From: an uncultured Nitrospiraceae bacterium
Lineage (GTDB): Bacteria; Nitrospirota; UBA9217
Length of the DNA: 64,000 nt
Assembly (NCBI GenBank): GCA_964586075.1
Contig: CAZPGZ010000001.1
Location: 149,099-213,098, forward strand
Direction of reading: 5' to 3'
The notes under the pieces were generated by a model that searched no databases, had not been told where the DNA came from, and saw only the letters and a list, made by a program, of their open reading frames with translations. The translations under genes and the position numbers were made by a program. Positions 33,194 through 53,331 of this stretch are shown in pieces; positions within the stretch are counted from its first letter, which is position 1, and every line of letters begins with the position of its first letter.

Positions 33194-34560
33194 TATCTAT
33201 TCGGCCCGATCAATTGCGGTATTTGTTCATTGTTATACTGTTTTCTGGCTATCCGCTCCACTTGGGGTTTCATGTAGCTAAACAGATCCTGTATCGCGAG
33301 CGAGCCGTCCTGTTTTACAACATTCTCATTCTTGATTCCCTTGAGTAAAAAATAGGTAAAGAGACCGTGGCCCTTCTCGTCATAGGTCGAGCTGCTCTGT
33401 TCGCCCGAGGAAGCTGCAAGAACAGTTATGTTTTTTGCCATTACTGCGTCATGCTTGAGATTCATGACAAGAGGACGGGCGCCTTTCGCAAGGACCGATC
33501 TGCCGCCCGCGCCCGAGAAGCATGAATCAAGCACAACAATGATTTCCTTTGCCGGTAGCTTTCCCAGGGCGTCGTACATTCTCTTCAGCGAATAACCCGT
33601 CTCCGCGATAAACGTCGGGTCGCCGTCATAGGGAACAAGATAAGCATCCCCCGTCTTGGTGTTGGGAGCCCCGTGTCCCGAATAGTAGATGAAAACAGTA
33701 CTCCCGTGTTCTATATTATTCGGGAGCCATCGCTCGATGTATTTTACAAAATCCCCCAACGCCGCCCGGTCATTTGTGAGGGTAATGATGTTTTCCGCCG
33801 GATACCCCATGGCTTTCGTCAGGTAGTCGGTCACGGTCTGCGCGTCGCTCACGGCAAAATCTGCCGCGGGTAGTTTCTGGCGGTACTGCTCGATTCCGAT
33901 GACAACGGCGTACGCGTTGGGATTCGTCTTCGATTTTGTGATCTGGATGTCGTCGACATCGGATCTGATGAGCGGTTTTGCAGCCTGAGGAAGAGCATCC
34001 TGCCGGCCAAGCTTTGCCAGGATCAACGGACGGCTCTCTTCGATCCTCAGACAGAGATTTTCAATTGCCTGCACCATGGCGCTGTTCATCGGCTCGACGT
34101 CAGCGCTCGCGGAAAACCTCGTCATGCCGCCTTGTACTGTGCTTTGTCCTGAAAACGAACCGAGATCACGCCCGTCCTTCGAAATCAACGCCGCCTTCAA
34201 ATTCGCGGCGTATTGAAAAGAATTGCCTTGCCGCAAGTGGTAGGTGACGTCAATGTTCAGCACGCTGTCCGCAAGGCCGTCCAAAACACGGTCGAATGTC
34301 GAGCGGGCCGCGAGATACCGTACGATCATCCTCTTCAACGATTCCTTGTCTACAGCGATCGGGGTCACTGGATTTGGATCTTCCTCCTTGACCCCCCGAA
34401 TTTCCACATGCACCGAAAACGGCACGGGAACCAGGCTCCTTGACGGAGAATCGACGGGCGCGATCATGACCGTGCGGGACGTGGCGCACCCGCTGAGCAC
34501 AACGGCCGCAAGTAGCATCAGGATCACACTGATTGAGGATATCTTACGCGTTCTGTTCAT
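33193..34560 (-). CDS. Lipoprotein with a C-terminal caspase (peptidase C14) domain
   Basis: Lipobox (LSGC). The caspase His-Cys dyad sits in YYSGHG ... VLDSCFSGAG. An N-terminal domain of about 200 aa is unassigned. The ATG at 34560 follows a GGGGG. Confidence 0.8.
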   Translation of the reverse strand: MNRTRKISSISVILMLLAAVVLSGCATSRTVMIAPVDSPSRSLVPVPFSVHVEIRGVKEEDPNPVTPIAVDKESLKRMIVRYLAARSTFDRVLDGLADSVLNIDVTYHLRQGNSFQYAANLKAALISKDGRDLGSFSGQSTVQGGMTRFSASADVEPMNSAMVQAIENLCLRIEESRPLILAKLGRQDALPQAAKPLIRSDVDDIQITKSKTNPNAYAVVIGIEQYRQKLPAADFAVSDAQTVTDYLTKAMGYPAENIITLTNDRAALGDFVKYIERWLPNNIEHGSTVFIYYSGHGAPNTKTGDAYLVPYDGDPTFIAETGYSLKRMYDALGKLPAKEIIVVLDSCFSGAGGRSVLAKGARPLVMNLKHDAVMAKNITVLAASSGEQSSSTYDEKGHGLFTYFLLKGIKNENVVKQDGSLAIQDLFSYMKPQVERIARKQYNNEQIPQLIGPNR

Positions 34561-34814
34561 AACCTGCCCCCTGGCGGATCGTTGTGTTTGACGGACAACC
34601 AACACGCATTGTCTCTCTAAAAACCAAGCACGCAATAGCAACCCACACTTTTTATGAAATATTATATTTTTCTTTCCCGGCTTTGTAAAGTTATTTACGC
34701 CGATGTTATATGTATCCTACATTGCTGCTTACTGTGTACCTCTATCTTTTTAAAAACTTCGTCTCGCAGGGATTGACTTTTCCCTCTCTTCAATCGTATA
34801 CTTCTTCACGCGCC

Positions 34815-35447: not shown

Positions 35448-36311
35448 ATGATCGCCATTACTGGAGCAACCGGCAGGCTCGGCAGATTGGTCATCTCAGA
35501 GCTTCTTAAAAAGATGCCGCCATCCGAAATCATCGCCACAGTACGGAACGCAGATAAAGCCAGGGATCTTGCGGCCAAGGGTGTAGTGGTGCGTATCGCT
35601 GACTACAATACCCCTTCGGCCTGGGACGCCACGCTCAAGGGTGTTGATAAATTGCTTCTGATCTCTTCGAGCGAAGTGGGGCACCGGCTGAGACATCACA
35701 GCTCCGTGATCGACGCGGCAAAGCGCGCGGGTGTCACGCTCCTTGCGTACACGAGCATTCTGCGACCGGAAACCTCGGCGCTCGGTCTTGCTGGTGAAGA
35801 CAAGGATACGGAATCGTATATCCGCACATCCAACGTGCCGTATGCAATGCTTCGGTACGGCTGGTTCACTGAGAACTATACCCTGAATATTCCCGCGATC
35901 CTGAAGGCCGGGATACTGTATGGCTGCGCGGGCAATGGCCGTGTTTCCTCTGCTGCGCGGATTGACTGTGCAGAAGCGGCCACTGCTGTCCTGACCCGGC
36001 CGGACCAGGCTGGAACGGTGTATGAACTCGCTGGCGACAACGCGCACACACACGCGGAATTCGTTGAAGAAATTTCACGCCAGACAGGCAGAGCGATCAG
36101 CTATGTCGATCTGACCGAGGCGGAGTACCAGGATACTCTCAAGAAGGCGGGAATGCCGGACAAGATTGCTGCACTAATCGCTGATTTCGACACGGCAGCT
36201 TCCAAAGGCGCACTGTACGACGCAGGCCGGGCAATGAGCATGCTGATCAACAGGCCGACAACGCCGATGTCAGCCTCTATCGCAGCGGCGCTGGGGGGGC
36301 AGGATTTTTAA
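35448..36311 (+). CDS. NmrA-like / SDR-family NAD(P)H-dependent oxidoreductase
   Basis: Rossmann motif IAITGATGRLG. Confidence 0.8.
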   Translation: MIAITGATGRLGRLVISELLKKMPPSEIIATVRNADKARDLAAKGVVVRIADYNTPSAWDATLKGVDKLLLISSSEVGHRLRHHSSVIDAAKRAGVTLLAYTSILRPETSALGLAGEDKDTESYIRTSNVPYAMLRYGWFTENYTLNIPAILKAGILYGCAGNGRVSSAARIDCAEAATAVLTRPDQAGTVYELAGDNAHTHAEFVEEISRQTGRAISYVDLTEAEYQDTLKKAGMPDKIAALIADFDTAASKGALYDAGRAMSMLINRPTTPMSASIAAALGGQDF

Positions 36312-36388
36312 ACATTACTGGCGCCAACTCAACAGACGGCAGCGTTTTATGAAACCATTAGGTTGTATTTCGCCCGCGTGATGCTGTA

Positions 36389-37033
36389 TTACTTTTTTGC
36401 CGTGACAACAAATAAGGCGCTTTTCCTTCCGACTTCAGGGTGAATATTTTGAAGTGCAGTGCTTTCCCCTATTTTCATTCCACGCAGCTCGCTTTCTAAT
36501 TCATCGGACGAAAAAAAATGAAAGAGTTTGCCTGTTCCGTCATCATACGTATTCGTTTCTATTTCCTTCCATTCGTGTCTCGGATATGATTCGTCCTCCA
36601 GTGACAGCACGCTCATAAACAAGCAGCCATCTTGCTTCAGCACCCGTTTTGCCTGCGTGAGCACCGCTCCTCGTTCTTTTTCGGTCAAACAGTGGAGTGA
36701 ATTCAGCATGACCACCAGGTCAAATGAATCATTCGGCATGCTCTTCGGAATGGAATCGTGCCTGATAAAGCTGCATTTCCCTCCGGGATTTTCATTTTTA
36801 TACGACTTTGCCTTTTCGATTGCTTTGACGGAAATGTCGATTCCGGTGACGTCAAAACCTTCTTTGGTCATAAGAACGGAATAGGCGCCGTCACCGCAAC
36901 CGAAATCCAGTATTGTTTTAACCGGAACTCTATGGAGAAATTGTTGAAGCATGCTCCAGAGGGGTTCATAAATCGGCGTGGACTTGCTTTCTTCGTAGTC
37001 TTTGTCCCATGGATTTACACTATTCGCTGCCAT
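36389..37033 (-). CDS. Class I SAM-dependent methyltransferase
   Basis: Motif I ILDFGCGDG. Confidence 0.8.
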   Translation of the reverse strand: MAANSVNPWDKDYEESKSTPIYEPLWSMLQQFLHRVPVKTILDFGCGDGAYSVLMTKEGFDVTGIDISVKAIEKAKSYKNENPGGKCSFIRHDSIPKSMPNDSFDLVVMLNSLHCLTEKERGAVLTQAKRVLKQDGCLFMSVLSLEDESYPRHEWKEIETNTYDDGTGKLFHFFSSDELESELRGMKIGESTALQNIHPEVGRKSALFVVTAKK

Positions 37034-37136
37034 ATTTCTGCCTTCTTTATCCGGCTGTCAATACTTTTTCAAGAAAAAAAGTACCACCATTGCTATCTGC
37101 CTGCGGTATTGACGAGGTCCTGGCACAGTCTTCCCG

Positions 37137-37715
37137 CTATTTCAGCTTGTTTAAATAATCGGCAAGCCCCACGCGGTCATCGCGCTTATCGCGCATTTCA
37201 TTGACGATTTTTTTTACCCATACATCACCGGTTCCTGCATTCAGAACAATCTTTCTCCCCTGCTTTCCGCCCGTGTCCTCTGCTACCAGTTTCAATTTGT
37301 ATTTATCGATGAGTATGTGCGCCATTTCGATATTTTGCTTCCCTATGGACTTTGTGGGATAGGCCACCTTGAGCACATCAGCGCCGCCGAAAATTTTCAC
37401 ATCCAGCTCGTGCGGCGCGACGCCCAGAGATTGGATTGTATCGATCAGCGTTTCGGTGGAACCGGCCACATACTTGAGAGGGTTGTCTTCAGTCGCGGCA
37501 TTGCACTTTACCGGGCAGTTGTCAACACAGCAGTGATGTGTTTTTTCCATGGGAAGCTGCGCGTGAGACAACGCGGCAAGACGGCGTCGTTTGCTGTATA
37601 AAACAAAAGACAGGCACGAACCCAGAATCGTGGTTATGATAAGCGGTTTGTCGGTAATGTACGCTTCTCCGGGCATGAGCGTTACATCAGCCTTGTTTTC
37701 CAGGTCATGTCTCAT
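37137..37715 (-). CDS. cheD: Chemoreceptor glutamine deamidase CheD (orphan, far from the che operon)
   Basis: ILGSC...KIFGGA...EDTGGKQGRKI are CheD hallmarks. There is a Cys-rich insertion (HCCVDNCPVKC). Confidence 0.8.
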   Translation of the reverse strand: MRHDLENKADVTLMPGEAYITDKPLIITTILGSCLSFVLYSKRRRLAALSHAQLPMEKTHHCCVDNCPVKCNAATEDNPLKYVAGSTETLIDTIQSLGVAPHELDVKIFGGADVLKVAYPTKSIGKQNIEMAHILIDKYKLKLVAEDTGGKQGRKIVLNAGTGDVWVKKIVNEMRDKRDDRVGLADYLNKLK

Positions 37716-37735
37716 ACGCGTATCCCGCGAAGCGT

Positions 37736-38350
37736 TTATGCTTCGCCAAGCGGCGGCACAGGGAAGCTATCGCGAACAGAAACAATCGCTTTGCCGAGCC
37801 ACGCGATTGTCTGTCCAAGATGATTCATGTTGCGCATTGCTTCATCATCGCGAAGGACTTCTTCCTTGCCGAGCCCCACCCCCATGTTCCAGTAGATGGA
37901 GCCGGGCACGATCATGGAAGACATGAGGAACATGTGGTTGATGCTGTCGAACACATGCGTGGCACCGCCGCGCCGGACGGCCACGACCGCGGCGCCGATC
38001 TTTCCCTTGAGCAGGGCGCCATTGGCCAGCGACACCAATCCCGCCCGGTCAAGCAGGGCCTTCATTTCGGCAGTCACGTCTGTGAAATAGGTTGGTGAAC
38101 CGAGAATGATCGCGTCGGCGTCATACATTTTTTCCAGGTATCCGTTCATGGAATCCTGCTGTATTACGCACCGCTTGTCCTTCTTTTCAAAACATTTGAA
38201 GCAGGCCATGCACCCGCGCACGGGCTGGCCGCCGATTTTCAGGTACTCCGTGCTCCAACCCGCAGCGTTCAGCGGCTCCAGCACTTTTTTGAGCAAAATT
38301 TCCGTGTTGCCGCCTGTTCTCGGGCTGCCGTTTATTGCGATAGCTTTCAT
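37736..38350 (-). CDS. NADPH-dependent FMN reductase / iron-sulfur flavoprotein (Isf-like)
   Basis: Flavodoxin-like fold with the compact Cys motif C-x2-C-x2-C-x7-C (CMACFKCFEKKDKRC). Confidence 0.75.
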   Translation of the reverse strand: MKAIAINGSPRTGGNTEILLKKVLEPLNAAGWSTEYLKIGGQPVRGCMACFKCFEKKDKRCVIQQDSMNGYLEKMYDADAIILGSPTYFTDVTAEMKALLDRAGLVSLANGALLKGKIGAAVVAVRRGGATHVFDSINHMFLMSSMIVPGSIYWNMGVGLGKEEVLRDDEAMRNMNHLGQTIAWLGKAIVSVRDSFPVPPLGEA

Positions 38351-38443
38351 TCAAGCCTCCTTTTGTCAGGGTGCATACTGACTTCGGGACCCGCCATTGC
38401 CGGGTCCCGGCGGTCCCATGATGATCCGCTTGTTTGCTCCCGT

Positions 38444-38676
38444 CTATTGTAATGGATTATATCCGGGCTTCTTATAAAGCTTCTCCTGGTTATTCAGGAT
38501 ATCCGGTTTATACACTTTTTCCACCCAGTCTTCCGGTTTGATTTCTTCAACAGCCACGGAAACGGATTTCTCTTCACACTTGGCTATTGCCACAACATCT
38601 TTCACGATTGTTTCGACAAGCTGAGTCTTCTGCTGCTCCGATCTTCCGGGATACAGCTTACAATAATGTGGGGCAT
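38444..38676 (-). pseudogene. Tautomerase (4-oxalocrotonate tautomerase family) gene with a 1-nt frameshift
   Basis: AAGGAGG, 5 nt, then ATG CCC CAC ATT ATT GTA encodes MPHIIV. The tautomerase frame continues +1 as KLYPGRSEQQK...EDWVEKVYKPDI. One missing A in ATTGTAA(A)GCTG would restore a 77-aa intact protein. Confidence 0.55.
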
Positions 38677-38699
38677 CGCTACCTCCTTTGTTTTTCTCT

Positions 38700-39746
38700 T
38701 TAAATGCCGAGCTTCCTGCGGGCCCAGTCCGCCATGCTTTTGATTTTTGGATCCCGGTCCTGACACGCCTGCCTGATATAGGGATGGTACCTGGAATCAT
38801 TGCTGTTTGCCATTGCGCGTATCGCGTTGGACTTCCAGAGCCAGATGCTTTCTTTGCCGATGTACCAAAATCTTGGTTGAATTGTCTCAAGGTACCTTTG
38901 TTCATCCATTTCTGCAATCTTGTCCGGAGTTAACAGTCCCGTGAGGGAATTCAACCTTGGAAACTCCTGTTCTTCTTTCCATAACCCTCTGTTTTTGGGA
39001 CACACATCCTGGCACACATCACAACCGTATAGCCAGGTCCCCATTTGCTCCCGCACCTGTTCTTCAGGAAGATCAGTGGAAAAAAAGGACTGCTGCGCTA
39101 TGCATAATCCCCTGTCCATTGCGTAGGGACCTGCCATTGCTCGCGTGGGACAGGCATCAATGCACGTGGTGCAGTTCGGCGGGCACGCGGAGCTGACTTC
39201 CTGCGGACCGTCATAGTCCAGCTCGGCGCTCACTGTCCAGGTATCGACAGTGACCCATGACCCGTACCGTGTATAGAGAAAATTATTCTTCCCAAAATGT
39301 CCCAGGCCTGCTTTCACCGCCGCCAATCTGGCTGCGGTCGAGTCCTTAAAACACTGCATTCCTTTGCCTTGAATATATTCTTCGAATAAGGCGGCGCTTT
39401 TGTAGCCTTCTGTGTATGGCAATCTGCGGTCAAACAAATACAATTTTCCAAAGTACCTGTCCGCGTCAGCCGGGATTTTGTATTTATTATAGCGTCGTAC
39501 ACAGACAACGATTGACTTCGCCCATGCTTCTTTTTTCTCGGGTGATCCCAGCGCGTAGAGTTGTTCGTATAAATGGCGCGATTGCGGAAACCGTTCCACC
39601 CGTTTATCGAGAAACGCTGTGTACTCGCTCAAGGAATCTGCCGGAATAATCCCGCATAAATCATAGCCAAGCGCATATGCCTTTTCTTTTATATCGGTAG
39701 TGGTATCAGATTTTTTCAAGGGCATCTCCTTGGAGGATACAGGCAA
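38700..39746 (-). CDS. queG: Epoxyqueuosine reductase QueG
   Basis: Two 4Fe-4S ferredoxin motifs (CPPNCTTCIDACP, CDVCQDVCP) with QueG-specific flanks. Confidence 0.85.
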   Translation of the reverse strand: MPVSSKEMPLKKSDTTTDIKEKAYALGYDLCGIIPADSLSEYTAFLDKRVERFPQSRHLYEQLYALGSPEKKEAWAKSIVVCVRRYNKYKIPADADRYFGKLYLFDRRLPYTEGYKSAALFEEYIQGKGMQCFKDSTAARLAAVKAGLGHFGKNNFLYTRYGSWVTVDTWTVSAELDYDGPQEVSSACPPNCTTCIDACPTRAMAGPYAMDRGLCIAQQSFFSTDLPEEQVREQMGTWLYGCDVCQDVCPKNRGLWKEEQEFPRLNSLTGLLTPDKIAEMDEQRYLETIQPRFWYIGKESIWLWKSNAIRAMANSNDSRYHPYIRQACQDRDPKIKSMADWARRKLGI

Positions 39747-39860
39747 TTCAAATGCAATATTCTAAATGTTCTTCAGTATTGCCTGAATTCAAAACAATTA
39801 TTTTGCTCACCAGATCCTGTTGTGTACAAACTGCAGGATAGCCAGGTACGACTTTTAAAA

Positions 39861-40418
39861 TCATTCAAATCTCTTTCCGTCTTTCCATGCTTCACCGATT
39901 TTTTTTCCAAAACTCCAGTAGGTATTGTCCATCATGGTCAGCAGGAACGCTCCCGCTTTTTCGTAGCTGAAATTATGATCAATCATGTATTTTGAGTCAG
40001 CATAGGCACCGACGATTTCGCCCACAAAAAGTGTATGCGTGGGAAAGTCCATTTTCTGAACCAGTTTGCATTCCAGAGATAAGGGACATTCCTCGATAAG
40101 CGGCGCTTTTTTAAGACTTTCATACCGCGCGGTATAAAGATGCGACTTGTCTTTTACGGCTCCTGACACAATGCCGACGTAGTCCGTTTTCTTTAGGTCG
40201 CTTGAAGACGGGAAGTTAACACTGAACTCACCACTCTCGGTTATCCCTTTCCACGTGTGGTGTTTATTGCCTATTCCGATTCCGATCATTGGAGGATTGC
40301 CATTCACTCTCGTGATCCAGCCTACTGCCATGTAGTTTTCTTTCCCATCGCATAGAGTACCCACAATACATACCGGCATGGGAATAAATATATTATTCCC
40401 GATTTTTTCTTTTGTCAT
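39861..40418 (-). CDS. Flavin reductase-like (FMN-binding split-barrel) protein
   Basis: 185 aa with a flavin reductase domain pattern. Confidence 0.7.
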   Translation of the reverse strand: MTKEKIGNNIFIPMPVCIVGTLCDGKENYMAVGWITRVNGNPPMIGIGIGNKHHTWKGITESGEFSVNFPSSSDLKKTDYVGIVSGAVKDKSHLYTARYESLKKAPLIEECPLSLECKLVQKMDFPTHTLFVGEIVGAYADSKYMIDHNFSYEKAGAFLLTMMDNTYWSFGKKIGEAWKDGKRFE

Positions 40419-40663
40419 ATCGGCCTCCTTCCGTTCCTGCGGTTTGGACTGAGTTTTTCTTTGCTGTTGAGTGACCGTATCATCTCATAATACATTTTGT
40501 CAAGTAGTTACAAAATAGTTAGACAGTTTCAGGAAGGTTACTATAACAAGACCATTTGCAGAATTAGCATCTAGAGTTTTATTTTGTTTTGTCAGTTCAA
40601 ATATTATTCCTCAGCTCCAAATACCCCGGACAACATGCTACTTCCAGCAATCTCTTGTAGATA

Positions 40664-40879
40664 TTAAGCCTGAACCTGAAAAATATCGTAATCCTTGGCA
40701 AAGTGTTTTGCAAGCGGCTGGTAGTGATAAAGACCGGTCGATCCGGACACCACGATGAGCACCCGCCCTTTTCCGCTCTCGGGCAAATATTCTTTCTGCT
40801 CAGGCAGAGGCGTTTCTGCATAAGCATTGTTCAACAATACAAAAATCAGGACAACGATTAGCCGGCACATTGTTTTCAT
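40664..40879 (-). CDS. Small secreted hypothetical protein (71 aa)
   Basis: Signal peptide. It lies in an AT-rich stretch and may be a gene remnant. Confidence 0.25.
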   Translation of the reverse strand: MKTMCRLIVVLIFVLLNNAYAETPLPEQKEYLPESGKGRVLIVVSGSTGLYHYQPLAKHFAKDYDIFQVQA

Positions 40880-40999
40880 GTATACTTTCTCCTTCCTGTG
40901 ATCTGAATTTTTATTGTTTAATCATTGCCTTAATGGTAAGTCAAGCGAAGAATCAATGTCGATAAAGGCAGGACGCTGACTACGCATACCTGCTGTTTC

Positions 41000-41186
41000 G
41001 GTTTGGAGAATGGCTTCTCTAAAAGTGCGAATAGATTTTATAAAGTCTCGATGCAATCGAAAGAACAGAAAAATACCCCCACTGCACTCACCAACTGCAT
41101 AAAACTATCCAAAAATAAAAAAGAGCCAGCAGAATCTGCCGGCTCTTTGATTTCAATGGTGGGCGCTACTGGGATTGAAGCAGTGG
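41000..41186. repeat. Direct repeat R1, a copy of the tRNA-Val 3' end (last 30 nt, one mismatch) plus its terminator hairpin and about 120 bp of degenerate flank. It is att-like.
   Basis: 41117..41186 is nearly identical to 44353..44422. The upstream roughly 120 bp are recognisably homologous (ggtttggagaatgg...aaagtgcgaa). Confidence 0.75.
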
Positions 41187-41220
41187 ACTTTGAAAATTAC
41201 ATTTCCAATGACAAATAGGC

Positions 41221-41278
41221 TTGACATCGAATTTAAAGAACAGTATTCTATAACGCGTTAAGCATTATTAACGCGTTA
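41221..41278 (+). promoter_or_regulatory. tetR promoter with a twin palindromic operator
   Basis: TTGACA, 17 bp, TATTCT (41221-49). It is followed by TAACGCGTTA, 8 bp, TAACGCGTTA (41251-78). Each 10-mer is itself palindromic, and the second ends 3 nt before the tetR ATG. Confidence 0.5.
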
Positions 41279-41281
41279 GAT

Positions 41282-41893
41282 ATGAATATCAAAGAACGTC
41301 GCCTTCTACATAAGAAGCTCTTCCGAGAAGAAATACTTGCTGCAGCGAGGGAATTATTTGCGCAGGAAGGATACCGTGGCTTCTCTATGCGTAAACTGGC
41401 TACTATGATTGAGCATTCCCCCACGGCCATTTATCTCTACTTTCATGATAAAGATGACCTGCTATACAATATTTGCGAAGATCTCTATTTGTCGTTTCTC
41501 AACAAGATCATTGAAATTCGCGAATCCGAACCAAATCCACGAGAAGCACTTCGATTAGTTCTCCACGAATATATTGTTTCCGGTTTGTCTAAACCAGATC
41601 ATTACAAAGTGGTTTTTTTTAGCAACCCGACAGTATATGGTACGCCGGATGATTTTATGAAAAAAGACACAATGGGCCGGCGCGTATATCTTTGTTTTCG
41701 AGAATTAGTAGCCGAATGCATGCAGCGAGGCATTCTGATCGGGAGTGATCCAGAGGTGCTTACCCAGGTATTCTGGTCTGCTGTACATGGTCTGGTTACG
41801 GCTATTATTTTTACCAAAGACTTTCCCCTCTCGAACACCAATATCCTAGCAGAGACAATGGTAGATGGCCTCTTAACAGGTCATGGAGCATAA
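41282..41893 (+). CDS. TetR/AcrR-family transcriptional regulator
   Basis: N-terminal HTH (ILAAARELFAQEGYRGFSMRKLATMIEHSPTAIYLYF). Confidence 0.85.
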   Translation: MNIKERRLLHKKLFREEILAAARELFAQEGYRGFSMRKLATMIEHSPTAIYLYFHDKDDLLYNICEDLYLSFLNKIIEIRESEPNPREALRLVLHEYIVSGLSKPDHYKVVFFSNPTVYGTPDDFMKKDTMGRRVYLCFRELVAECMQRGILIGSDPEVLTQVFWSAVHGLVTAIIFTKDFPLSNTNILAETMVDGLLTGHGA

Positions 41894-41944
41894 CATGGCG
41901 GCACCAAATAAAATCACAGTAAAGCAATATTTGAGGTTTGGTTT

Positions 41945-44086
41945 ATGGGTAAGAAAAAGAGACATTTATATGTCATTGCTGGCGGAAAATCAGGCAGTCA
42001 AATCAGCAGCGAAAAGTTCAACTTTATTCCCTGCGCCGCGGTGCTTGAGGAAGCATCCACTCTATTGTCCTCACTCCAGAAAGAAGACGGTCACTGGGTA
42101 TTCGAACTAGAAGCAGATGTAACAATTCCTGCAGAATATGTCATGCTGCAACGTTTTCTCGGGCGTCCGATAAATGATGATATACGGGAGCGGTTGACAT
42201 TATATTTACTTGATAGACAGTTACCGGACGGAGGTTGGCCGCTCTATGCCGTTGATGGTAATGCCGACCTGAGCGCATCGGTAAAAGCATACTTTGCTCT
42301 CAAAATTCTTGGTCATAATAAAAACGAGTCTTGCATGATTAAAGCTCGGCAGGTGATTTTGGCTCTTGGAGGGGCTGAATGTAGCAATGTTTTTACCAGA
42401 ATCGCGTTGGCAATTTTTGGACAAGTTCCGTGGCACACACCACCAGTCATGCCGGTGGAAATAATTCTGCTTCCCCGTTGGTTTTTTTTTCATCTCGGCA
42501 AAGTCGCCTACTGGTCGCGTACTGTAATAGCTCCTCTTTTAATCCTCTATGCACAAAAACCAATTTGCAGCCTACGCCCAGAAGAATGCATAACTGAACT
42601 CTTTATAGCTCGCCCGGAAACTCTTTTTAATATAGACAGATTTCGACCGCGAGCATGGCGAAAAAATTTTTTCATAGCTTTCGACCGGATACTAAAAGAC
42701 TCCGTTCACCTTATCCCTGCATTTATAAATAGAAGAGCGCAGAAAAAAGCCGAGCTCTGGACGCGCGAACGCATGCAGGGCGAGGGCGGTATCGGGGCAA
42801 TATTTCCCGCGATGGCTTATGCTGTCATGGCACTGAAAGTTCTAGGATGCAAAAATGACGATGCGGACTTTATGCGCGGAATAACGGCAATCGATGATTT
42901 GCTAATGCATCGAATACCGAATAAAAACGGCCCTTCTGACAACGGAATCCTAGGATATTGTTTAAGTCGATCATCCGCAGCACCAGAAATATTTCCCCGC
43001 AATAACGCTGCAACTTCGCGCAGTGAAGCAGTAACACTTTGCCAACCCTGCTCCTCGCCTGTTTGGGATACCTGTATGAGTCTTACCGCCTTGATGGAGT
43101 CTGGTTTCGCCCAAAAGTCATTTTCAGAAGATAAAACCATGCGATGGCTTTTCGACCGGCAGATTACTGCTCCCGGTGACTGGGCGACATATTCTCCCAG
43201 ACTTGAAGGTGGTGGTTGGGCCTTTCAATATGAAAATACCCGTTATCCTGATCTGGATGATACCTCAAAAGTATTGATGAGCCTTTTTCGAGCCAATGCC
43301 CTAAAGCATGAACAATATCAAGACAAGATCAATCGTGCAGTTATGTGGGTGATCGGCATGCAAAACTCTGATGGAGGTTGGGGCGCCTTTGATAAAGACA
43401 ACAACCGTCTGTATTTAAACGACATCCCATTTGCCGACCATGGGGCGCTTCTTGATCCGAGCACCTCAGATGTGACTGGCAGGTGTATCGAGATGCTGGG
43501 GATGTTAGGATACGGTAAAGCTTTTTCTCCCATTGCACGCGGAATCAACTTTCTGCGCAACAACCAGGAAAAATTCGGTGGTTGGTTTGGTCGCTGGGGA
43601 GTGAATTATATATACGGAACGTGGTCTGTACTATCGGGGCTTAAGCAGGCCGGTGAGGATATGCGGCAATCTTACGTTAAAAAGGCAGTTACATGGCTCA
43701 TGCATCATCAGAATCAGGATGGCGGATGGGGAGAAAGCTGTGCAAGTTACGACAATCCATCGTTGGCAGGCATGGGTGCAAGCACGGCGTCTCAAACCGC
43801 ATGGGCATTATTGGCACTTATGGCAGCGGGTGAGGTTGATAGTTCTTCTGTGCAACGAGGTGTAGAATATCTCGTAAAACATTTCACTCCTCATGTCGGT
43901 TGGGAAGAACCATATTTTACAGGCACAGGATTTCCACGAGTGTTTTATCTGCGCTACCACGGCTACAGTCTTTATTTTCCTATTTGGGCTTTAGGGGTAT
44001 ATCATCGCAAAAAAAATGGTTTAGATACCGTGCAGGAAAGTGTCCAAGGCAAGGGAAGCAGCGTAAAAATGAGCATCGGTTGTTGA
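41945..44086 (+). CDS. shc: Squalene-hopene cyclase
   Basis: 713 aa with multiple QW motifs and a catalytic DxDDT motif (DLDDTS). There is long collinear similarity to characterised SHC (WLFDRQITAPGDWA...). Confidence 0.9.
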   Translation: MGKKKRHLYVIAGGKSGSQISSEKFNFIPCAAVLEEASTLLSSLQKEDGHWVFELEADVTIPAEYVMLQRFLGRPINDDIRERLTLYLLDRQLPDGGWPLYAVDGNADLSASVKAYFALKILGHNKNESCMIKARQVILALGGAECSNVFTRIALAIFGQVPWHTPPVMPVEIILLPRWFFFHLGKVAYWSRTVIAPLLILYAQKPICSLRPEECITELFIARPETLFNIDRFRPRAWRKNFFIAFDRILKDSVHLIPAFINRRAQKKAELWTRERMQGEGGIGAIFPAMAYAVMALKVLGCKNDDADFMRGITAIDDLLMHRIPNKNGPSDNGILGYCLSRSSAAPEIFPRNNAATSRSEAVTLCQPCSSPVWDTCMSLTALMESGFAQKSFSEDKTMRWLFDRQITAPGDWATYSPRLEGGGWAFQYENTRYPDLDDTSKVLMSLFRANALKHEQYQDKINRAVMWVIGMQNSDGGWGAFDKDNNRLYLNDIPFADHGALLDPSTSDVTGRCIEMLGMLGYGKAFSPIARGINFLRNNQEKFGGWFGRWGVNYIYGTWSVLSGLKQAGEDMRQSYVKKAVTWLMHHQNQDGGWGESCASYDNPSLAGMGASTASQTAWALLALMAAGEVDSSSVQRGVEYLVKHFTPHVGWEEPYFTGTGFPRVFYLRYHGYSLYFPIWALGVYHRKKNGLDTVQESVQGKGSSVKMSIGC

Positions 44087-44217
44087 GTCAAGAGATAAGA
44101 ATTAAAAAACTGAAATTTCCTTTTAGACTTTATCTTCATTTATATCACAACTTGAAATCACATCCGCTTCAACTATCGCTTGATCAACATATACATGCTG
44201 TTTATCGCGGTTCGGCT

Positions 44218-44422
44218 TGAAGATTGGAGAACGGTATTTCCGAAAGTGCGAACAGCTTGTGCAAATTCTCGGTGCTATGCACAAACGATAAAACCGAAAA
44301 ACAGGAAGGTTGCTCTTTCTTATTAACTGTACAAAAACTGACACACGAAATAAAAAAAGAGCCAGCAGAATCTGCCGGCTCTTTGATTTCAATGGTGGGC
44401 GCTACTGGGATTGAACCAGTGG
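44218..44422. repeat. Direct repeat R2, comprising the native tRNA-Val 3' end, its terminator and a degenerate flank
   Basis: Partner of R1. Confidence 0.75.
44356..44392 (-). terminator. Rho-independent terminator of tRNA-Val
   Basis: On the minus strand it reads AGAGCCGGCAG-att-CTGCTGGCTCT followed by TTTTTT. Confidence 0.6.
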
Positions 44423-44467
44423 CCCCTGCCGTGTGAAGGCAGTGCTCTCCCGCTGAGCTAAGCGCCC
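44393..44467 (-). tRNA. tRNA-Val (anticodon CAC)
   Basis: 75 nt: GGGCGCTTAGCTCAGCGGGAGAGCACTGCCTTCACACGGCAGGGGCCACTGGTTCAATCCCAGTAGCGCCCACCA. It folds as a cloverleaf by manual inspection, with CAC at positions 34-36 of the anticodon loop TTCACAC. Confidence 0.85.
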
Positions 44468-44534
44468 TGAAACGGTTAACATCTTACCCAGAGGATGGGT
44501 GTTAGTCAAGCTAAAAAAGTATTTTTCCACAGCA

Positions 44535-45698
44535 TCAGTCAACAACCAGAATCGCGCATTTCAGATACTCGGTTTCCCGCGCCGCAAGAAGAATCGGATG
44601 GTCCCGGGACTGCGCGCGCATTTCCAGGAGCCTCGCCTGTCTGCCGGCGGAATATGCCGCATCGAGCAGCATTTCCCTGAACAACGCCTGGTCTATATGG
44701 TGCGAACACGAGCAGGACACGAGAATGCCGTGCGGTTCGAGCAGCTGCATCGCGCGCCGGTTGATTTCCTTATAGCCCTTCAGCGCTTCGCGCACTTTCG
44801 CCCTGTTTTTCACGAACGCAGGAGGATCAAGAATGATGCAGCCGAAGTGTTCCCGATTCTTTTCGAGCAACCGCAGTTCCTCGAAAACATCGGCTTTTTT
44901 GAATTGCACGGACAATCCGTTCAGTTCCGCGTTGAAGGAAGCGCTCGCGATGGCACGCTCTGATGAATCGAGGCCGATGACTTCGGAAGCACCGAAGCGC
45001 GCAGCAGCAAGCGACCAGGCGCCGACATAGCAGAAACAGTCGAGCACCCGTTCCCCGCTCACGTAATCCTTGATTGCCAGCCGGTTTTCCCGCTGGTCGA
45101 AAAAAAACCCTGTTTTCTGGCCCTGGAGCAGATCGACTTCGTACCGGATGCCTGACTCCTGAATAAGGACGGGCCCTCCGAGTTCTCCATGCAGGACGCG
45201 CGTTTCAAGGGCCAGTCCTTCCAGCTCGCGGGAGGCCATGTCGTTCCGGAGAACAATTGCGTTCGGGGAAAACTCCTGCTGCAGCGCGGGAATGAATTCC
45301 GGGAGAAGATTGTCCATGCCGGCCGTGGATGACTGCACGACCAGCGTGTCGGCGTATTTGTCCACGATCAATCCCGGCAGATTGTCCCCTTCGCTGAACA
45401 CGGCCCGGAATGAATCAGCAAGCCCGAGCGCGGTTCGCAGGGCGTGCGCCGTGGCCAGCCTCGTGTGAAAAAATGCCTGATTAATTGCTTCCTGTTTCCG
45501 CGTTAAAATGCGGACCGCTATCAGGGTATGGGGATTGACATATCCTCTGCCGACAAACCGGCCGGACGCGTCAAGCACGTCCACCAGCTCGCCGGCAAGA
45601 AACGTCTCTTTGGTGTGCTGGAGTTCGTTGCTGAACACCCAGGGGTGTCCGCGCAAAACGCGCCGCTCTTCTTTTTGCTTTAGCTTTATTGTTTTCAT
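44535..45698 (-). CDS. rlmI: 23S rRNA m5C1962 methyltransferase RlmI
   Basis: N-terminal PUA-like region followed by a SAM-methyltransferase domain. Confidence 0.8.
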   Translation of the reverse strand: MKTIKLKQKEERRVLRGHPWVFSNELQHTKETFLAGELVDVLDASGRFVGRGYVNPHTLIAVRILTRKQEAINQAFFHTRLATAHALRTALGLADSFRAVFSEGDNLPGLIVDKYADTLVVQSSTAGMDNLLPEFIPALQQEFSPNAIVLRNDMASRELEGLALETRVLHGELGGPVLIQESGIRYEVDLLQGQKTGFFFDQRENRLAIKDYVSGERVLDCFCYVGAWSLAAARFGASEVIGLDSSERAIASASFNAELNGLSVQFKKADVFEELRLLEKNREHFGCIILDPPAFVKNRAKVREALKGYKEINRRAMQLLEPHGILVSCSCSHHIDQALFREMLLDAAYSAGRQARLLEMRAQSRDHPILLAARETEYLKCAILVVD

Positions 45699-45792
45699 GC
45701 AGATTGATGAAAGAAAAATAAAGATAGAGAACGCTTGTTCGTAAAGGGTTTTTACCCCGCGTTTCTATTCAGAAAACCCGGATGCCCTGCTG

Positions 45793-46737
45793 CTACAGTT
45801 TGTTTTCTATATGCGAATCGCTTCTGAGTGTCTGGAGCCAGTTCCGGTAGGAATTATCCAGCTTCTGCTGATAGAGAATATTCAGAATCTCTTCCTTGAC
45901 GCTCTCGAACGGTTTGATCGGCGAGCGCGTCTCTTCAAGCAGGATAACATTATAGCCGCCGGCGCCGAGGAACGGTTTTGCAACCTCGCCGGGCTGAAGA
46001 TTCTGAATAGCCGCTGCAATCTCGGGAATCACCTGGTCTCTTTGCATGAAGCCCAGATCGCCGTCGTGCTGGGCAGTCACGCCTTCCGATGCCTCGCGGA
46101 CAAGGCCGGTAAAATCTTCTCCCTTTTTCGCACGTTCATACAATGCCTGTGCTTTTTCCTTTGCCGCGGCAATCTTGTCCGCTTTCGCTTTTTCCGGCAC
46201 CGGAATGAATATCTGCCGCACGCGGATTTCTTCAGGAAGAGAATATAATTTCAGGTTTTTCTGGTAAAATGCGCGTGCTTCCGCTTCGTCCACGGTAATG
46301 CTGGCGCGCACGAATTTGTTGAAAACGCGTGAAAGCGTCATCTGCTCCTTCAAGTCCGACTTGTATTGCTCAAGGGTCAGCCCTTCCTTGGCCAAGGCCG
46401 CCTCGAACTGTCTGCTGTCCATATTATTTCGTTTTTCTATGTCCGAAACGGCTTCGCTCAATTCCTTGTCCGTAACGTCCATACCGGCACGTTTTGCTGC
46501 CGTCATCTGCAGTTTTCTGTCAATCATGTCATCAAGAATATGGCGCGTGTCCAGTTTTGGTTCTTTTTTCTTATTGAGGGTCTCCTCTCGCTGCAGATCG
46601 GAAAGCGTGATAATCTCGCCGTTCACAACGGCAACCACCCGATCCACAACAAGGGAGCCGGTTGCGGCGCCCTGCAGGCCTGAGAAAAGAAAAAGGCCTG
46701 TTAACATTACAGTCGATAAGAGGATTTTTTTAGCCAT
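45793..46737 (-). CDS. SurA-like periplasmic chaperone / peptidyl-prolyl isomerase (parvulin type)
   Basis: Signal peptide, a SurA N-terminal-like region and a PpiC domain (GDLGFM...). Confidence 0.75.
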   Translation of the reverse strand: MAKKILLSTVMLTGLFLFSGLQGAATGSLVVDRVVAVVNGEIITLSDLQREETLNKKKEPKLDTRHILDDMIDRKLQMTAAKRAGMDVTDKELSEAVSDIEKRNNMDSRQFEAALAKEGLTLEQYKSDLKEQMTLSRVFNKFVRASITVDEAEARAFYQKNLKLYSLPEEIRVRQIFIPVPEKAKADKIAAAKEKAQALYERAKKGEDFTGLVREASEGVTAQHDGDLGFMQRDQVIPEIAAAIQNLQPGEVAKPFLGAGGYNVILLEETRSPIKPFESVKEEILNILYQQKLDNSYRNWLQTLRSDSHIENKL

Positions 46738-46835
46738 GTTTTAGTTTCCTGCTCGCTATAAATTTGGATTGGAAGAGCTGATTTTCTTTTTTATTGCCTT
46801 TTGAAACCAAGTTGATTATTATCCAGGAGTATATT

Positions 46836-47915
46836 ATGAAAAAAACCGTTGCTTCATTTCTTACTGCTATTACTGCGCTTGCTCTTGCATCATTCGCCCT
46901 TGCCGCGGAACCAACGGCGGCACAGCCGGAGGAAATCACGATTGCCGCAGTCGGCGACATCATGCTCGGGCATCGGACCGAACCGGTTTTAAAGAAGCTC
47001 GGTCCGCAGTATCCGTTTGTAGAGGTGCAACCGTTTCTCGACAAGGCTGATATTGTTGTAGGCAATCTTGAATCGCCGATTTCCACACGCGGTACTGCCG
47101 TGGCAAACAAGAAGTTCACGCTTCGCGCCGGGCCGGTCGCCGTAGAAGCTCTCACGGCCGCCGGCGTCCACGTGGTTACGCTTGCCAACAATCATTCCAT
47201 GGACTTCGGCCCGCTGGCGCTGCAGGACACGCTTGAAATTCTCGACGAAAACGAGATTCTCTATTCAGGGGCGGGGATGGACATTGAGGATGCCCGCGCA
47301 CCCGCGATCCTGAAAATCAAGGGAAAAACGATTGCCTTTCTTTCATATTCCCTTACCTTTCCGCTCGAATTCTACGCTTCTGCGAAGCGTCCGGGCACCG
47401 CGCCGGGGTATCAGGAATTTGTAAAAGCTGACGTGGAAAAAATCCGCCCTTTGGCTGATCTCGTGGTGGTCTCGTTTCACTGGGGTGCCGAACTGATGAC
47501 AGCGGCCAAAGAGTATCAGGTGGAACTGGGGCATCAGGCCATAGACTGGGGCGCAGACCTTGTGCTGGGCCACCATCCTCATGTACTGCAGGAAATCGAA
47601 ATTTACAAAGGCCGTCTCATAGCATACAGCCTCGGAAATTTCGTCTTCGGTTCCGAAAGCAACAATACAAACTGCAGTATCATACTCCTTTTGACCTTTC
47701 AGGGCAAGAGCCTTGTCAGGGCGGAGGCGGTTCCTCTGGATGTAAACAATTACCGGGTAAAGTACCAGCCGCGGGTGCTGAAAGGCAAGGCTGCTGCTGA
47801 GGTGCTGGAAGCGCTGCAAGACGCTTCGGAGCGTTTTGACACGGAGTTTGAAATCGAGTCGGACATCGGAAAAATTCAGCTCGCATCCGGGGAAACGACC
47901 ACGGCCGCTGAATGA
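46836..47915 (+). CDS. CapA-family (PGA_cap) metallophosphoesterase-like protein
   Basis: Signal peptide. The ATG at 46836 follows an AGGAG RBS. It carries the CapA signature regions. Confidence 0.75.
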   Translation: MKKTVASFLTAITALALASFALAAEPTAAQPEEITIAAVGDIMLGHRTEPVLKKLGPQYPFVEVQPFLDKADIVVGNLESPISTRGTAVANKKFTLRAGPVAVEALTAAGVHVVTLANNHSMDFGPLALQDTLEILDENEILYSGAGMDIEDARAPAILKIKGKTIAFLSYSLTFPLEFYASAKRPGTAPGYQEFVKADVEKIRPLADLVVVSFHWGAELMTAAKEYQVELGHQAIDWGADLVLGHHPHVLQEIEIYKGRLIAYSLGNFVFGSESNNTNCSIILLLTFQGKSLVRAEAVPLDVNNYRVKYQPRVLKGKAAAEVLEALQDASERFDTEFEIESDIGKIQLASGETTTAAE

Positions 47916-47967
47916 TAAAGGACAGCTTGCAACCGTTTGAAACGCTGCTGCATTCCGGATGTGAACG

Positions 47968-48912
47968 TTACTCCAAGACTTTGTAGTTTACTGCAAATTT
48001 CGTTTTTGCCCGCAGGTCTGTCAACCATTGTTTGTACCGTGCGTCTTCCTTTTCATGCCGCAGCTTTTCTTCGATTTCCTTCCGGGCTTCCTCGAAGGTG
48101 ATTTTCCCTGCATGTCGTTTGTCCACGAGTTTGAAGATATGGTACCCGTAGGGGCTCTTGATAATCCCGCTCACGCCGCCTTTGGGCAGCCCGAACACCA
48201 CGTTGAATTCCTTCGGCATATCTCCCATGGCAAAATAACCAAGATCGCCGCCCTTTGCGGCTTCCGGCGCCGTAGACTTGTCGTGCGCAATGGTGGCAAA
48301 ATCCCCGCCCGCATGCAGAAGCTCCAGTACTTTTTTCGCATCGTCCTCGGTAGGAACCACGATCTGGCGCACGCGCACCTGCTCTGGCTTTTCAAACTCC
48401 TGGGGATTGGCCTGGTAGTACCGGCGCACGTCAGCAGATGACAGGGAAACGCGCCGGTAGACCTCGCTTTCGAGCAAATGCTGAATCATGAGCTCTTCCC
48501 AGAGGTCGGATTTCCATTTTTCAAAATCGACACCGAGCCCCGCCAGTTCCGTTGCGATGTCTTTTCCGTGTTCGCTGCGGAACGCTTCAACCCGCTTGTC
48601 TATTTCCGGCGTGCCGACTTTGATTCTTTTCCGCTGGGCTTCGCGCAGCAACATCGTGCGCTCGATCAGCCGGTTTAAAAATTCTTCTTTCACGGCACGG
48701 CTCGCGTCTCGCTCGGCCTTAAGCCCGGCGCGGGCAAATCGCTCCTGAAACTCGGAAAGCGTTATCGGGTCTCCATTTACGGTTGCCACCACTTTTGCAT
48801 CAGCCGTGGCCGCGCGCCCCTGATCGCCTTCTTCCTTTTTTTTGCAGGAAAAAAACAATAACCCCAGCAGCAGCACTGGGGTTATATATTTTGTCATCGG
48901 CAGCATGTTCAT
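47968..48912 (-). CDS. Parvulin-type peptidyl-prolyl isomerase (SurA/PpiD-like)
   Basis: PpiC domain (GGDLGYFAMGDM...). The internal ATG chosen avoids overlap with the upstream gene. Confidence 0.75.
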   Translation of the reverse strand: MNMLPMTKYITPVLLLGLLFFSCKKKEEGDQGRAATADAKVVATVNGDPITLSEFQERFARAGLKAERDASRAVKEEFLNRLIERTMLLREAQRKRIKVGTPEIDKRVEAFRSEHGKDIATELAGLGVDFEKWKSDLWEELMIQHLLESEVYRRVSLSSADVRRYYQANPQEFEKPEQVRVRQIVVPTEDDAKKVLELLHAGGDFATIAHDKSTAPEAAKGGDLGYFAMGDMPKEFNVVFGLPKGGVSGIIKSPYGYHIFKLVDKRHAGKITFEEARKEIEEKLRHEKEDARYKQWLTDLRAKTKFAVNYKVLE

Positions 48913-48922
48913 GGTGGATGTG

Positions 48923-49630
48923 TTATTTAGCTCCTTCTTTGGACGGTGCCGTCGTTTGCGACCAGTTTGCAACGGCTGCGTCCAGCGCCTTGTCGTCCAC
49001 GGACACGTTTGCTTTGGCTCTCAGATTCTTGGTGTATTCAATATAGATCGGACGTTGTTTCTCCTGGATAAGCCGCATTTTTATCTGCGGCGCTACGTCC
49101 TTAAAACTGATCTGCTTGCCGTCCGGCGTGCGGATTTTATCCTTGTTCTTGTTGTAGAAATCCAGTGCCTCCTTGTCGGTCGGCGCCGGCAGGCTGTTCA
49201 GTTTTTCGCTCAGATCTTTTTTCAACATGCTGTTAAAGAGCTCGTCCCGGGTTGCGGTTTGCAGCTGTTCATCGAGCTGCTTTTTCTGCTGGTCAAGCTG
49301 TTTTTTGAATTCCTCGATTTTTTTCTTCCGTGCATCCATGTTCTTTATGAATTCCGCGTCTTTGTCGAGTCCCTGCTTTTTTGCTTCCTGGATCACCAGC
49401 TCAATGCCGATAAGGTCTTCGATATAGTCCTTGCGCATTTTGGGATCGGCGGCCACGGCCTCCTGCAGCTGCGGGGCCAAATCATCATATTGTTTTTTTA
49501 AATCGGCAACAGTGATTTTCTCCCTGTTTATTTTCGCCAGTACGGTATTGTCGGATCCTTTATTGCAGCCCGGCAGCAGAACGGCCAGTGCGATGACGAA
49601 AACACTCAATGCTCTATAAATGGTTGTCAT
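48923..49630 (-). CDS. SurA N-terminal-domain lipoprotein (chaperone-like)
   Basis: Lipobox LLPGC and a Lys/Glu-rich helical body. Confidence 0.6.
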   Translation of the reverse strand: MTTIYRALSVFVIALAVLLPGCNKGSDNTVLAKINREKITVADLKKQYDDLAPQLQEAVAADPKMRKDYIEDLIGIELVIQEAKKQGLDKDAEFIKNMDARKKKIEEFKKQLDQQKKQLDEQLQTATRDELFNSMLKKDLSEKLNSLPAPTDKEALDFYNKNKDKIRTPDGKQISFKDVAPQIKMRLIQEKQRPIYIEYTKNLRAKANVSVDDKALDAAVANWSQTTAPSKEGAK

Positions 49631-49709
49631 GTAGCGATATCCTCCACTCTTTTTATAGTCACGGTTTTGTTTCCTGACTGTATCGTGCAGTGTGGTTCTT
49701 ATAACACAC

Positions 49710-53213: not shown

Positions 53214-53331
53214 GCGAAAACAATATAACATAGCGCCAAAACCAATTCAACTAATGCGGGTTTCTTCTGCGTGCTCTGAGATTCTTCTTGATATACCCTT
53301 TTCAATTCTATAAAATTCACAACAGGCTGCG

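Follow-up and report, generated by a model that had tools for sequence, protein, structure and literature searches.

How does a gene for a squalene-hopene cyclase come to lie, with only the gene of a TetR-family regulator for company, between two copies of the end of a tRNA gene, when no recombinase gene accompanies it? The question is raised by a stretch of 64,000 nucleotides from an uncultured Nitrospirota bacterium (contig CAZPGZ010000001.1; the whole stretch is called the window here), in which a segment of 3.24 kb containing tetR and shc and no other gene is bounded by direct repeats that each include the 3' end of tRNA-Val(CAC). An earlier note on this DNA, made from the sequence alone, had read the segment as an islet integrated at the tRNA gene and left without an integrase. 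That interpretation was essentially right, and the islet is real but fairly ordinary: it is probably a decayed, integrase-less genomic islet, similar to a cis-mobilizable element (CIME), that arose by tyrosine-integrase-type recombination at the 3' end of tRNA-Val(CAC).

The repeats were recovered by a repeat search as two pairs of blocks (41112-41186 vs. 44348-44422, 96% identical, and 41003-41072 vs. 44224-44293, 70% identical), which local alignment merges into a single repeat of 184-199 nt (41003-41186 vs. 44224-44422). Within it, a core identical at 69 of 70 positions adjoins a flank of about 115-130 nt that is ~70% alike. The likeness of these degenerate flanks is not a matter of chance, since the flanks alone align with a score of 28, far above the 10.0 ± 1.4 (maximum 18) obtained in 300 shuffles. 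The repeated part of the tRNA consists of nucleotides 46-75 (i.e., the T arm, the 3' acceptor strand and the encoded CCA), of which 29 of 30 are identical in the partial copy at 41157-41186; we call the repeat that contains this fragment copy 1, and the one that runs into the intact tRNA gene, the only tRNA gene that ARAGORN finds in the window, copy 2. The likeness of copy 1 to the tRNA breaks off sharply at 41186/41187, and the 5' two-thirds of the tRNA have left no trace there. The T stem (ACTGG/CCAGT) encloses a 7-nt T loop, and the only mismatch in the core (41180 G vs. 44416 C) sits 5' of this loop in copy 1, where it breaks the stem. A stem around a 7-nt loop is the usual core-site layout for tRNA-targeting integrases, and the side 5' of the loop that derives from attP need not match the tRNA. 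Past the tRNA, the terminator-like hairpins of the two copies (41120-41148 and 44356-44384, minus strand) are identical, and apart from the tRNA nothing in Rfam matched the flanks with E < 0.1. The earlier account of the repeat thus holds, including the origin of two shadow open reading frames beginning MENG(F/I)S (41003-41218 and 44224-44436), which lie within the repeat copies and are by-products of the duplication, and copy 1 did not turn out to be the remnant of a separate, unrelated tRNA gene.

The claim that integration was targeted to the tRNA is borne out by relatives, in which the same gene is a hotspot. We fetched 48 Nitrospirota loci by way of the rlmI-like gene (loci are numbered L001 and so forth), and tRNA-Val(CAC) follows this gene in 43 of the 44 that reach beyond its 3' end. 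In L020, L021, L023, L027, L030, L033, L036 and L056, the 3' end of the tRNA recurs once or twice in direct orientation 1-8 kb downstream. The recurring part amounts to 27-47 nt, and in L033 to almost the entire tRNA, and nearly every such copy is accompanied by its own terminator-like hairpin. Full-length tyrosine recombinases adjoin the tRNA in L023 (395 amino acids) and L011, and integrase fragments of the same or a second type adjoin the tRNA or an internal copy in L010, L018, L020, L025, L029, L036, L045 and L055. There are also two clean pairs of filled and empty sites: L030 has an insert of 5.4 kb with a 67-nt duplication relative to L032, and L027 has an insert of 1.0 kb that encodes a PIN-domain protein, with a 46-nt duplication relative to L028; no integrase gene is present in either insert. 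Taken together, the extra copies, the integrases and the filled and empty pairs document integration at tRNA-Val, integrase decay and integrase-less islets within this clade.

The islet also appears to be polymorphic among these relatives. In L005, a complete Nitrospirota chromosome that matches the right flank at 95% and the left flank at 90-92% identity, the order is rlmI, tRNA-Val, 164 nt of its own sequence, a caspase gene and a flavin-reductase gene, and about 6 kb are lacking. The tRNA terminator, the hydrolase and protease genes described below, tetR and shc are all absent there. In L006 (86.5% identical), tRNA-Val is followed by a homologous hairpin with changes at paired positions and then by a katG fragment. 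The tetR-shc genes are therefore absent from the tRNA site in both, neither site being cleanly empty, and the arrangement is not a universally conserved, syntenic one: the metagenome-assembled genome (MAG) that contains L006 carries the two genes at another place.

The hotspot also includes more elaborate arrangements. Three copies of the tRNA-Val 3' end form arrays in L033 (11320-13081, with two complete tRNA-Val(CAC) genes) and L020 (11295-19134), with small cargo between the copies (in L020, a helix-turn-helix regulator and a PIN protein), and L021 and L027 carry toxin-antitoxin-like islets of ~1 kb.

What, then, are the degenerate flanks? Loci that have an integrase or what remains of one show, after the hairpin, repeats of the type TGTGCAGT-AAT-TGTGCAGTTGG...GTGCAGT, and versions of this arm motif occur in both window repeats (GTGTGTCAGTTTTTGTACAGTT in copy 2 and TTTATGCAGTTGGTGAGTGCAGT in copy 1). 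The distal, presumably original copies in L020, L021, L023, L027 and L030 are without it, and in L027 and L030 they agree instead with the native flank seen in the respective empty-site partner. A profile of the element end (i.e., tRNA end, hairpin and arm), built from 16 element ends in relatives, most of them beside an integrase gene or fragment, matches the window at 44421-44322 (E = 1e-26) and 41185-41076 (E = 1e-18), and the two best matches in the window of a profile of the arm alone are the two arm positions, each in the correct orientation. With moderate strength, the motifs and profile matches at both copies lead us to read both flanks as the integrase-proximal arms of two related elements. 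Copy 1 would then probably be the end of an older, decayed element and not virgin chromosomal flank, and the whole would probably be a tandem array in the order tRNA, islet A (tetR-shc), core and remnant B (the hydrolase and protease side). Of the earlier proposal of a single insertion at a tRNA site, the tRNA-targeted origin stands; the site entered was probably not a virgin attB, and the islet probably lies in an array beside the older element. No third tRNA fragment that would mark the far end of that element was found in the window or in a sister strain (L002) with up to 5 mismatches allowed. Two other ideas about the flanks were dropped: relaxed tblastn searches for remnants of an integrase gene gave only trivial overlap with the tRNA and hairpin, and the likeness of a translated 'SANSL' to the tail of the L023 integrase is merely the translated hairpin.

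The order of events that we infer is as follows. An element would have entered the 3' end of tRNA-Val(CAC) by site-specific recombination of the tyrosine-integrase type, with the crossover in or near the T loop. It would have brought a new 3' end for the tRNA, along with a terminator hairpin and its integrase-proximal arm, which together became copy 2, and the displaced tRNA 3' end and the sequence downstream of it would have become copy 1. Because a similar arm follows copy 1, the neighbor beside which the islet integrated was probably an older element, related to it and likewise decayed, which would lie beyond copy 1 on the side of the hydrolase and M6-like protease genes. The integrase genes may have been lost since, or the islet may always have been moved by an integrase acting in trans.

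Several results weigh against this account. A tblastn search of the 64-kb window with the clade's own integrases found no integrase (in agreement with the earlier note, which saw no recombinase), and no coding remnant of one was found in the flanks, so that decay in situ is assumed and not seen. The profile of the arm alone is weak, with E values of 0.097 (the site at 44322-44352) and 1.8 over 128 kb. By blastn, only the hairpin and ~25 nt have counterparts in relatives; the distal flanks (41003-41075 and 44224-44321) match nothing there. The hairpins are identical while the arms are only ~70% alike, a combination that requires either closely related elements or gene conversion. A clean empty site for the tetR-shc islet, with tRNA-Val joined directly to the flank at 40.6 kb as the earlier note had suggested looking for, was not found among the relatives: L005 was rejected as such a site since its terminator is missing, its gap is larger than the islet, and its first 50 nt past the tRNA match the end of an integrase element of the L036/L045 type at 41 of 50 positions, which points to the remnant of a different element. 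Junctions of an excised form were likewise not found; an exact scan of public metagenomes for 57 nt of the core returned nothing and missed even the source contig, so the metagenome collection scanned does not hold this organism. Finally, the tetR-shc cassette is 81% identical to its counterpart in L085 (in the same MAG as L006), which is near the genome-wide divergence, so that the acquisition may be old and not recent.

This last point bears on the timing. Possibly, although on balance we think it unlikely, the ancestor of the species group already carried tetR-shc at tRNA-Val or close to it, and the genes have been inherited vertically since, having been lost in L005 and moved by an insertion sequence (IS) in the MAG of L006 and L085; such a history is compatible with an integrase-mediated origin and concerns only its date. 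The proteins encoded in the two MAGs (SHC 85% and TetR 80% identical) fall within the range of housekeeping proteins (83-97%), the signs of a later element and of a deletion at the L005 site mean that the absence there is not ancestral, the L085 IS lies where the edge of copy 1 would be, and in a third strain (L003) the two hairpins have diverged at two positions. An old islet is harder to reconcile with window cores that differ at 1 of 70 positions, with a cassette whose composition at third codon positions is still far from that of host genes, and with the lack of any tRNA fragment to the left of the L085 IS.

The origin itself could be sought in processes that need no integrase. Circular or linear DNA of a related strain in which the tRNA-Val 3' end, terminator and flank lay beside tetR-shc might have been inserted by Campbell-type, RecA-dependent recombination through the 61-70-nt core. 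The missing integrase would then need no explanation, and the duplicated stretch is long, extends well past the tRNA and is a mosaic of near-identity and 70% likeness; moreover, strain-level homologous recombination clearly acts at this place (a tract of ~10 kb at 99.5-99.9% identity between two strains that diverge by 3-4% in the adjoining DNA). We nevertheless judge such an insertion improbable: the duplication has its 5' end at the T arm (nucleotide 46), much as the copies in eight relatives begin 27-47 nt from the tRNA 3' end (farther in L033), integrase genes or fragments adjoin the tRNA in several relatives, 60-70 nt of identity are short for RecA, and a prior event that put a tRNA fragment beside the cassette would still be required. 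If, instead, the region at the tRNA-Val 3' end had been duplicated in tandem, or a second tRNA-Val had decayed, and the cassette had been inserted later (e.g., by IS activity), then the repeats would not be attachment sites at all. L033 does possess two full tandem tRNA-Val(CAC) genes, the cassette has an IS5-like element as its neighbor in L085 and transposases on either side on a plasmid of Trichlorobacter lovleyi, and homology of the cassette starts ~5-15 nt from the edge of copy 1. We consider this sequence of events very improbable, in that a repeat search found no IS, inverted repeats or target-site duplication around the cassette in the window, the 5' two-thirds of the tRNA cannot be traced in copy 1, a 99% identical core beside a 70% identical flank is not expected from simple duplication, and each flank resembles the element arms of relatives. 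Integrase-type recombination at the tRNA 3' end is the reading that we retain, and the junctions that it predicts are given with the other features in Table 1.

Table 1. Features of the tRNA-Val region and the tetR-shc islet, with window coordinates.
Feature	Position	Strand	Basis or remark
Dienelactone-hydrolase-like gene, 5' stub of 71 codons	40664-40879	minus	Comparison with L002; older variable DNA beyond copy 1
Repeat copy 1: partial tRNA (41157-41186), hairpin (41120-41148), arm motif (41076-41103), distal flank (41003-41075)	41003-41186		
tetR-shc cassette as common to a second Nitrospirota MAG (L085), 81% nucleotide identity	41201-44109	plus	blastn
Promoter-like site of tetR-shc (TTGACA-17-TATTCT)	41221-41249	plus	Consensus scan; kept in L085
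Candidate TetR operator, 10-bp palindrome TAACGCGTTA twice	41251-41260, 41269-41278		Between -10 and tetR start
tetR, 203 aa, TetR_N and TetR_C_33	41282-41893	plus	PF00440 (E 7e-13), PF13305 (E 2e-7)
shc, squalene-hopene cyclase of 713 aa	41945-44086	plus	PF13249 and PF13243, TIGR01507, alignment to PDB 1GSZ
Repeat copy 2 (attL-type): tRNA nt 46-75, 7-nt spacer, hairpin, arm motif, degenerate distal flank	44224-44422		Repeat search and alignment
Arm motif of copy 2, TGTGTCAGTTTTTGTACAGTT	44322-44352	minus	Resembles the integrase-side TGTGCAGT-N3-TGTGCAGTT repeats of relatives
Terminator-like hairpin after the intact tRNA, 13 pairs then a T run	44356-44384	minus	
tRNA-Val(CAC), intact, encoded CCA; attL-side boundary of the islet	44393-44467	minus	ARAGORN; Rfam tRNA, 66 bits
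Promoter-like site of the tRNA gene (TTGACT-17-TAAGAT)	44481-44509	minus	Consensus scan alone
Expected attP junction: flank 2, core, 41187 onward			...CACGAAATAAAAAAAGAGCC...GATTGAA(G/C)CAGTGGACTTTGAAAATTAC
Expected attB junction: flank 1, core, 5' part of the tRNA			...CTATCCAAAAATAAAAAAGAGCC...CAGTGGCCCCTGCCG

Among known systems, CIMEs are defined as elements that retain attL and attR and are without genes for integration and transfer, the example being elements related to ICESt1 of Streptococcus thermophilus (PMC5704250, citing Pavlovic et al. 2004 and Bellanger et al. 2011). The islet resembles them in its direct repeats of attL/attR type, each with the target gene's 3' end inside it, in the absence of integrase and transfer genes and in its probable tandem accretion with decayed elements; it differs in its target (tRNA-Val in Nitrospirota vs. 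fda in streptococci) and in being only 3.2 kb long with two genes. Both cores are intact at the sequence level, with only tetR and shc between them, and on this footing the islet appears to fit the published definition and may be called CIME-like, a term that we use without implying descent from an integrative and conjugative or an integrative and mobilizable element, or mobilization in cis.

The islet can equally be set beside genomic islands at tRNA and tmRNA genes, whose integration sites Williams (Nucleic Acids Res 2002) reportedly classified by sublocation into the T loop and the anticodon loop. Like them, it has the intact tRNA at one end, the end of the gene having been restored, and a 3' fragment from the T arm onward at the other, the two strands of its T stem are inverted repeats on either side of a 7-nt loop, and it shares with them the building of arrays by reuse of the site and a metabolic operon as cargo. 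Unlike them, it has no integrase, and the duplicated block adds a terminator hairpin and an arm of more than 100 nt. An integrase beside the tRNA-proximal end, a feature of autonomous islands, is missing from the window and is present in L023 and L011. Tandem islands at ssrA in Dehalococcoides (PMC3146451) are a further case of such arrays.

The two genes of the islet appear to form a self-contained operon, with a predicted sigma-70-type promoter and two TAACGCGTTA palindromes ahead of tetR and a weak terminator behind shc. In agreement with the earlier note, open reading frame and domain scans find nothing else between the repeats, and no hpn or squalene-synthase family occurs among the scanned open reading frames of the window, which otherwise contains housekeeping, chemotaxis and flagellar genes. 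The cyclase gene begins 51 nt after tetR ends. Its product scores 716.6 bits against the TIGR01507 equivalog model (cut-off 431.1) and has both cyclase domains, which align with those of the Alicyclobacillus acidocaldarius enzyme (PDB 1GSZ, 2SQC, 3SQC; E = 2e-144). The DxDD motif, which is catalytic and starts cyclization by protonation, is kept as DLDD where that enzyme has DVDD (YPDLDDTS aligned with YPDVDDTA of 1GSZ), and the predicted reaction is the conversion of squalene to hopene or hopanol. The window enzyme differs from the A. acidocaldarius one in that its gene is paired with a TetR gene and not with hpn genes, and in an insertion of ~36 residues between the domains (at residues ~313-366). 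This insertion contains a motif, SSAAPE, that is common to the Trichlorobacter homologue, and it may mark a clade of TetR-linked cyclases.

The regulator is most likely an autorepressor. It has the N-terminal helix-turn-helix (PF00440) of local repressors of the TetR/AcrR type and, like these, is encoded directly upstream of its presumed target, with palindromes overlapping the promoter; it departs from the type in that a lipid cyclase takes the place of the efflux pump as the presumed target, and in that the genes are co-directional and probably co-transcribed and not divergent. The nearest named NCBIfam models all scored below their cut-offs. Both TAACGCGTTA palindromes are retained in L085 with a different spacer between them, and a related palindrome, TTAACGGTGTTAA, precedes tetR at the same place in L088, L089, L090 and L092. 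The protein would bind these palindromes, repress its own tetR-shc operon and let go upon binding a ligand.

Is the pairing of the two genes local to this islet? A TetR gene lies upstream of shc, in the same direction, in all 11 other chromosomal contexts that we compared, most of them in Desulfuromonadia (L085-L089, L090 from Geotalea uraniireducens, L092 from Oryzomonas japonica, L094 of the Syntrophotalea type and the metagenome loci L095-L097). These are every SHC examined with at least ~60% identity to that of the window; the gap between the genes is 24-69 nt in the seven contexts measured, and cyclases of 48% identity or less are without such a TetR. Because the identity of TetR falls alongside that of SHC (TetR/SHC pairs of 80/85, 61-63/67-68, 50/64 and 43/60%), the pair appears to have been inherited together. 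The cassette is placed differently in related genomes, which marks it as a discrete unit: in L085, its neighbors are a PrmA-like gene on one side and, on the other, an IS5-like element bounded by 23-nt inverted repeats, and no tRNA or tRNA fragment is present. Judged by these comparisons of sequence and gene order, tetR-shc is an old, conserved, mobile and pre-formed two-gene unit and not a local pairing. The L085 IS (2252-3106, ~850 nt, with DDE_Tnp_1 and DUF4096 domains) lies directly upstream of the tetR promoter, at the equivalent of the edge of copy 1, and may explain why the cassette is at a different locus there. The cyclase of the same clade on the 290-kb Trichlorobacter lovleyi plasmid pIAE1 (L093, NZ_CP058410.1 239135-255249; 64% identical) lies between transposases in a region flanked by two qacEdelta1-sul1 remnants of class 1 integrons; a tetR gene was looked for upstream of it and is absent.

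The horizontal acquisition proposed in the earlier note agrees with the composition of the cassette, with its absence from the tRNA site in L005 and L006 and with its other location in the 86%-identical MAG. GC content at third codon positions (GC3) is 0.40 in tetR and 0.42 in shc, as compared to 0.56-0.70 in most housekeeping genes of the window (MnmG, at 0.44, is an exception), so the cassette looks foreign in Nitrospirota. Since GC3 of the cassette is 0.36 in L085 and 0.54-0.80 in those of the Desulfuromonadia type, no sampled homologue looks like the direct donor. Hosts of this clade of cyclases include Desulfuromonadia chromosomes, the Trichlorobacter plasmid (without tetR) and Nitrospirota, a distribution that invites a bolder and, in our view, doubtful proposal: TetR-SHC might travel from phylum to phylum as one unit, a portable 'hopanoid switch' gated by a ligand, and in this Nitrospirota clade small integrase-less cassettes that end in the tRNA-Val 3' end and hairpin might be actively inserted and removed in trans by the integrases of resident elements, the locus being an array of cassettes and not a graveyard of decayed islands. 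In the library searched, neither a TetR-SHC unit nor an shc gene within a tRNA islet came up in any paper, which is only weak evidence of novelty.

On the side of mobile elements the islet shows textbook behavior, and its value is mainly that of a documented hotspot in a poorly studied phylum. The main interest lies in the regulated, portable cyclase unit. Hopanoids are read as biomarkers in geology and as signs of membrane adaptation, and it therefore matters which lineages make them and how the ability spreads. A tiny mobile islet can evidently carry a single cyclase and its own repressor in an uncultured, probably anaerobic Nitrospirota bacterium; as such, the shc of a lineage may be strain-specific and recently acquired, which weakens the taxonomic reading of shc surveys. 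Regulated hopanoid synthesis, moreover, finds a simple, testable case in the conserved TetR-SHC unit and its candidate operator.

Close strains add detail to the surroundings of the islet. A contig from a JGI metagenome (L001) differs from the window by 2 mismatches over an overlap of 22,142 nt, and in the sister strain L002 the islet is likewise present, together with both repeats. L002 has 3.7 kb of additional sequence to the left of copy 1, with caspase-ankyrin, M6-like metalloprotease and dienelactone-hydrolase-like genes; it corresponds to a 3.7-kb deletion in the window strain (L002 5024-8747; junction at ~40692-40696), which has spared only the 71-codon stub of the hydrolase-like gene (Table 1). 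Identity between the window and L002 is 99.5-99.9% from 35676 to ~45500 and 96-97% further right. The step is abrupt, with 0-5 mismatches per 300 nt to the left of it (35676-45500) and 6-58 to the right (45500-54135); the boundary lies inside the rlmI-like gene, where the differences peak at 58 (45492-45791), indicating a recent tract of homologous recombination. Near-identity of SHC between the strains was considered as a sign of recent transfer and rejected, since the tract ignores the borders of the islet; it reflects strain-level homologous recombination and is uninformative on the mobility of the islet. The Logan contig L003 (3255 nt, from the third strain) has a terminal overlap of 19 nt and was considered as a circular form. 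It was likewise rejected: each end is 30 nt away from a base that differs between the copies (41180 and 44374), which identifies the ends as an assembly break at the repeat with k = 31.

Two further genes to the left of the islet deserve mention. A gene of the 4-oxalocrotonate-tautomerase family (77 codons, 38444-38700, minus strand) has lost one nucleotide from an A run after codon 6 relative to L002 (GTAAAG to GTAAG), and is either a fresh pseudogene or the product of a homopolymer sequencing error. The window also keeps a second caspase (Peptidase_C14) gene at 33193-34641, the 3' part of which (33197-33753) is 73-74% identical in DNA to the caspase-ankyrin gene of L002 (5887-6444) and L005 (11472-12030), the two being paralogues ~6 kb apart.

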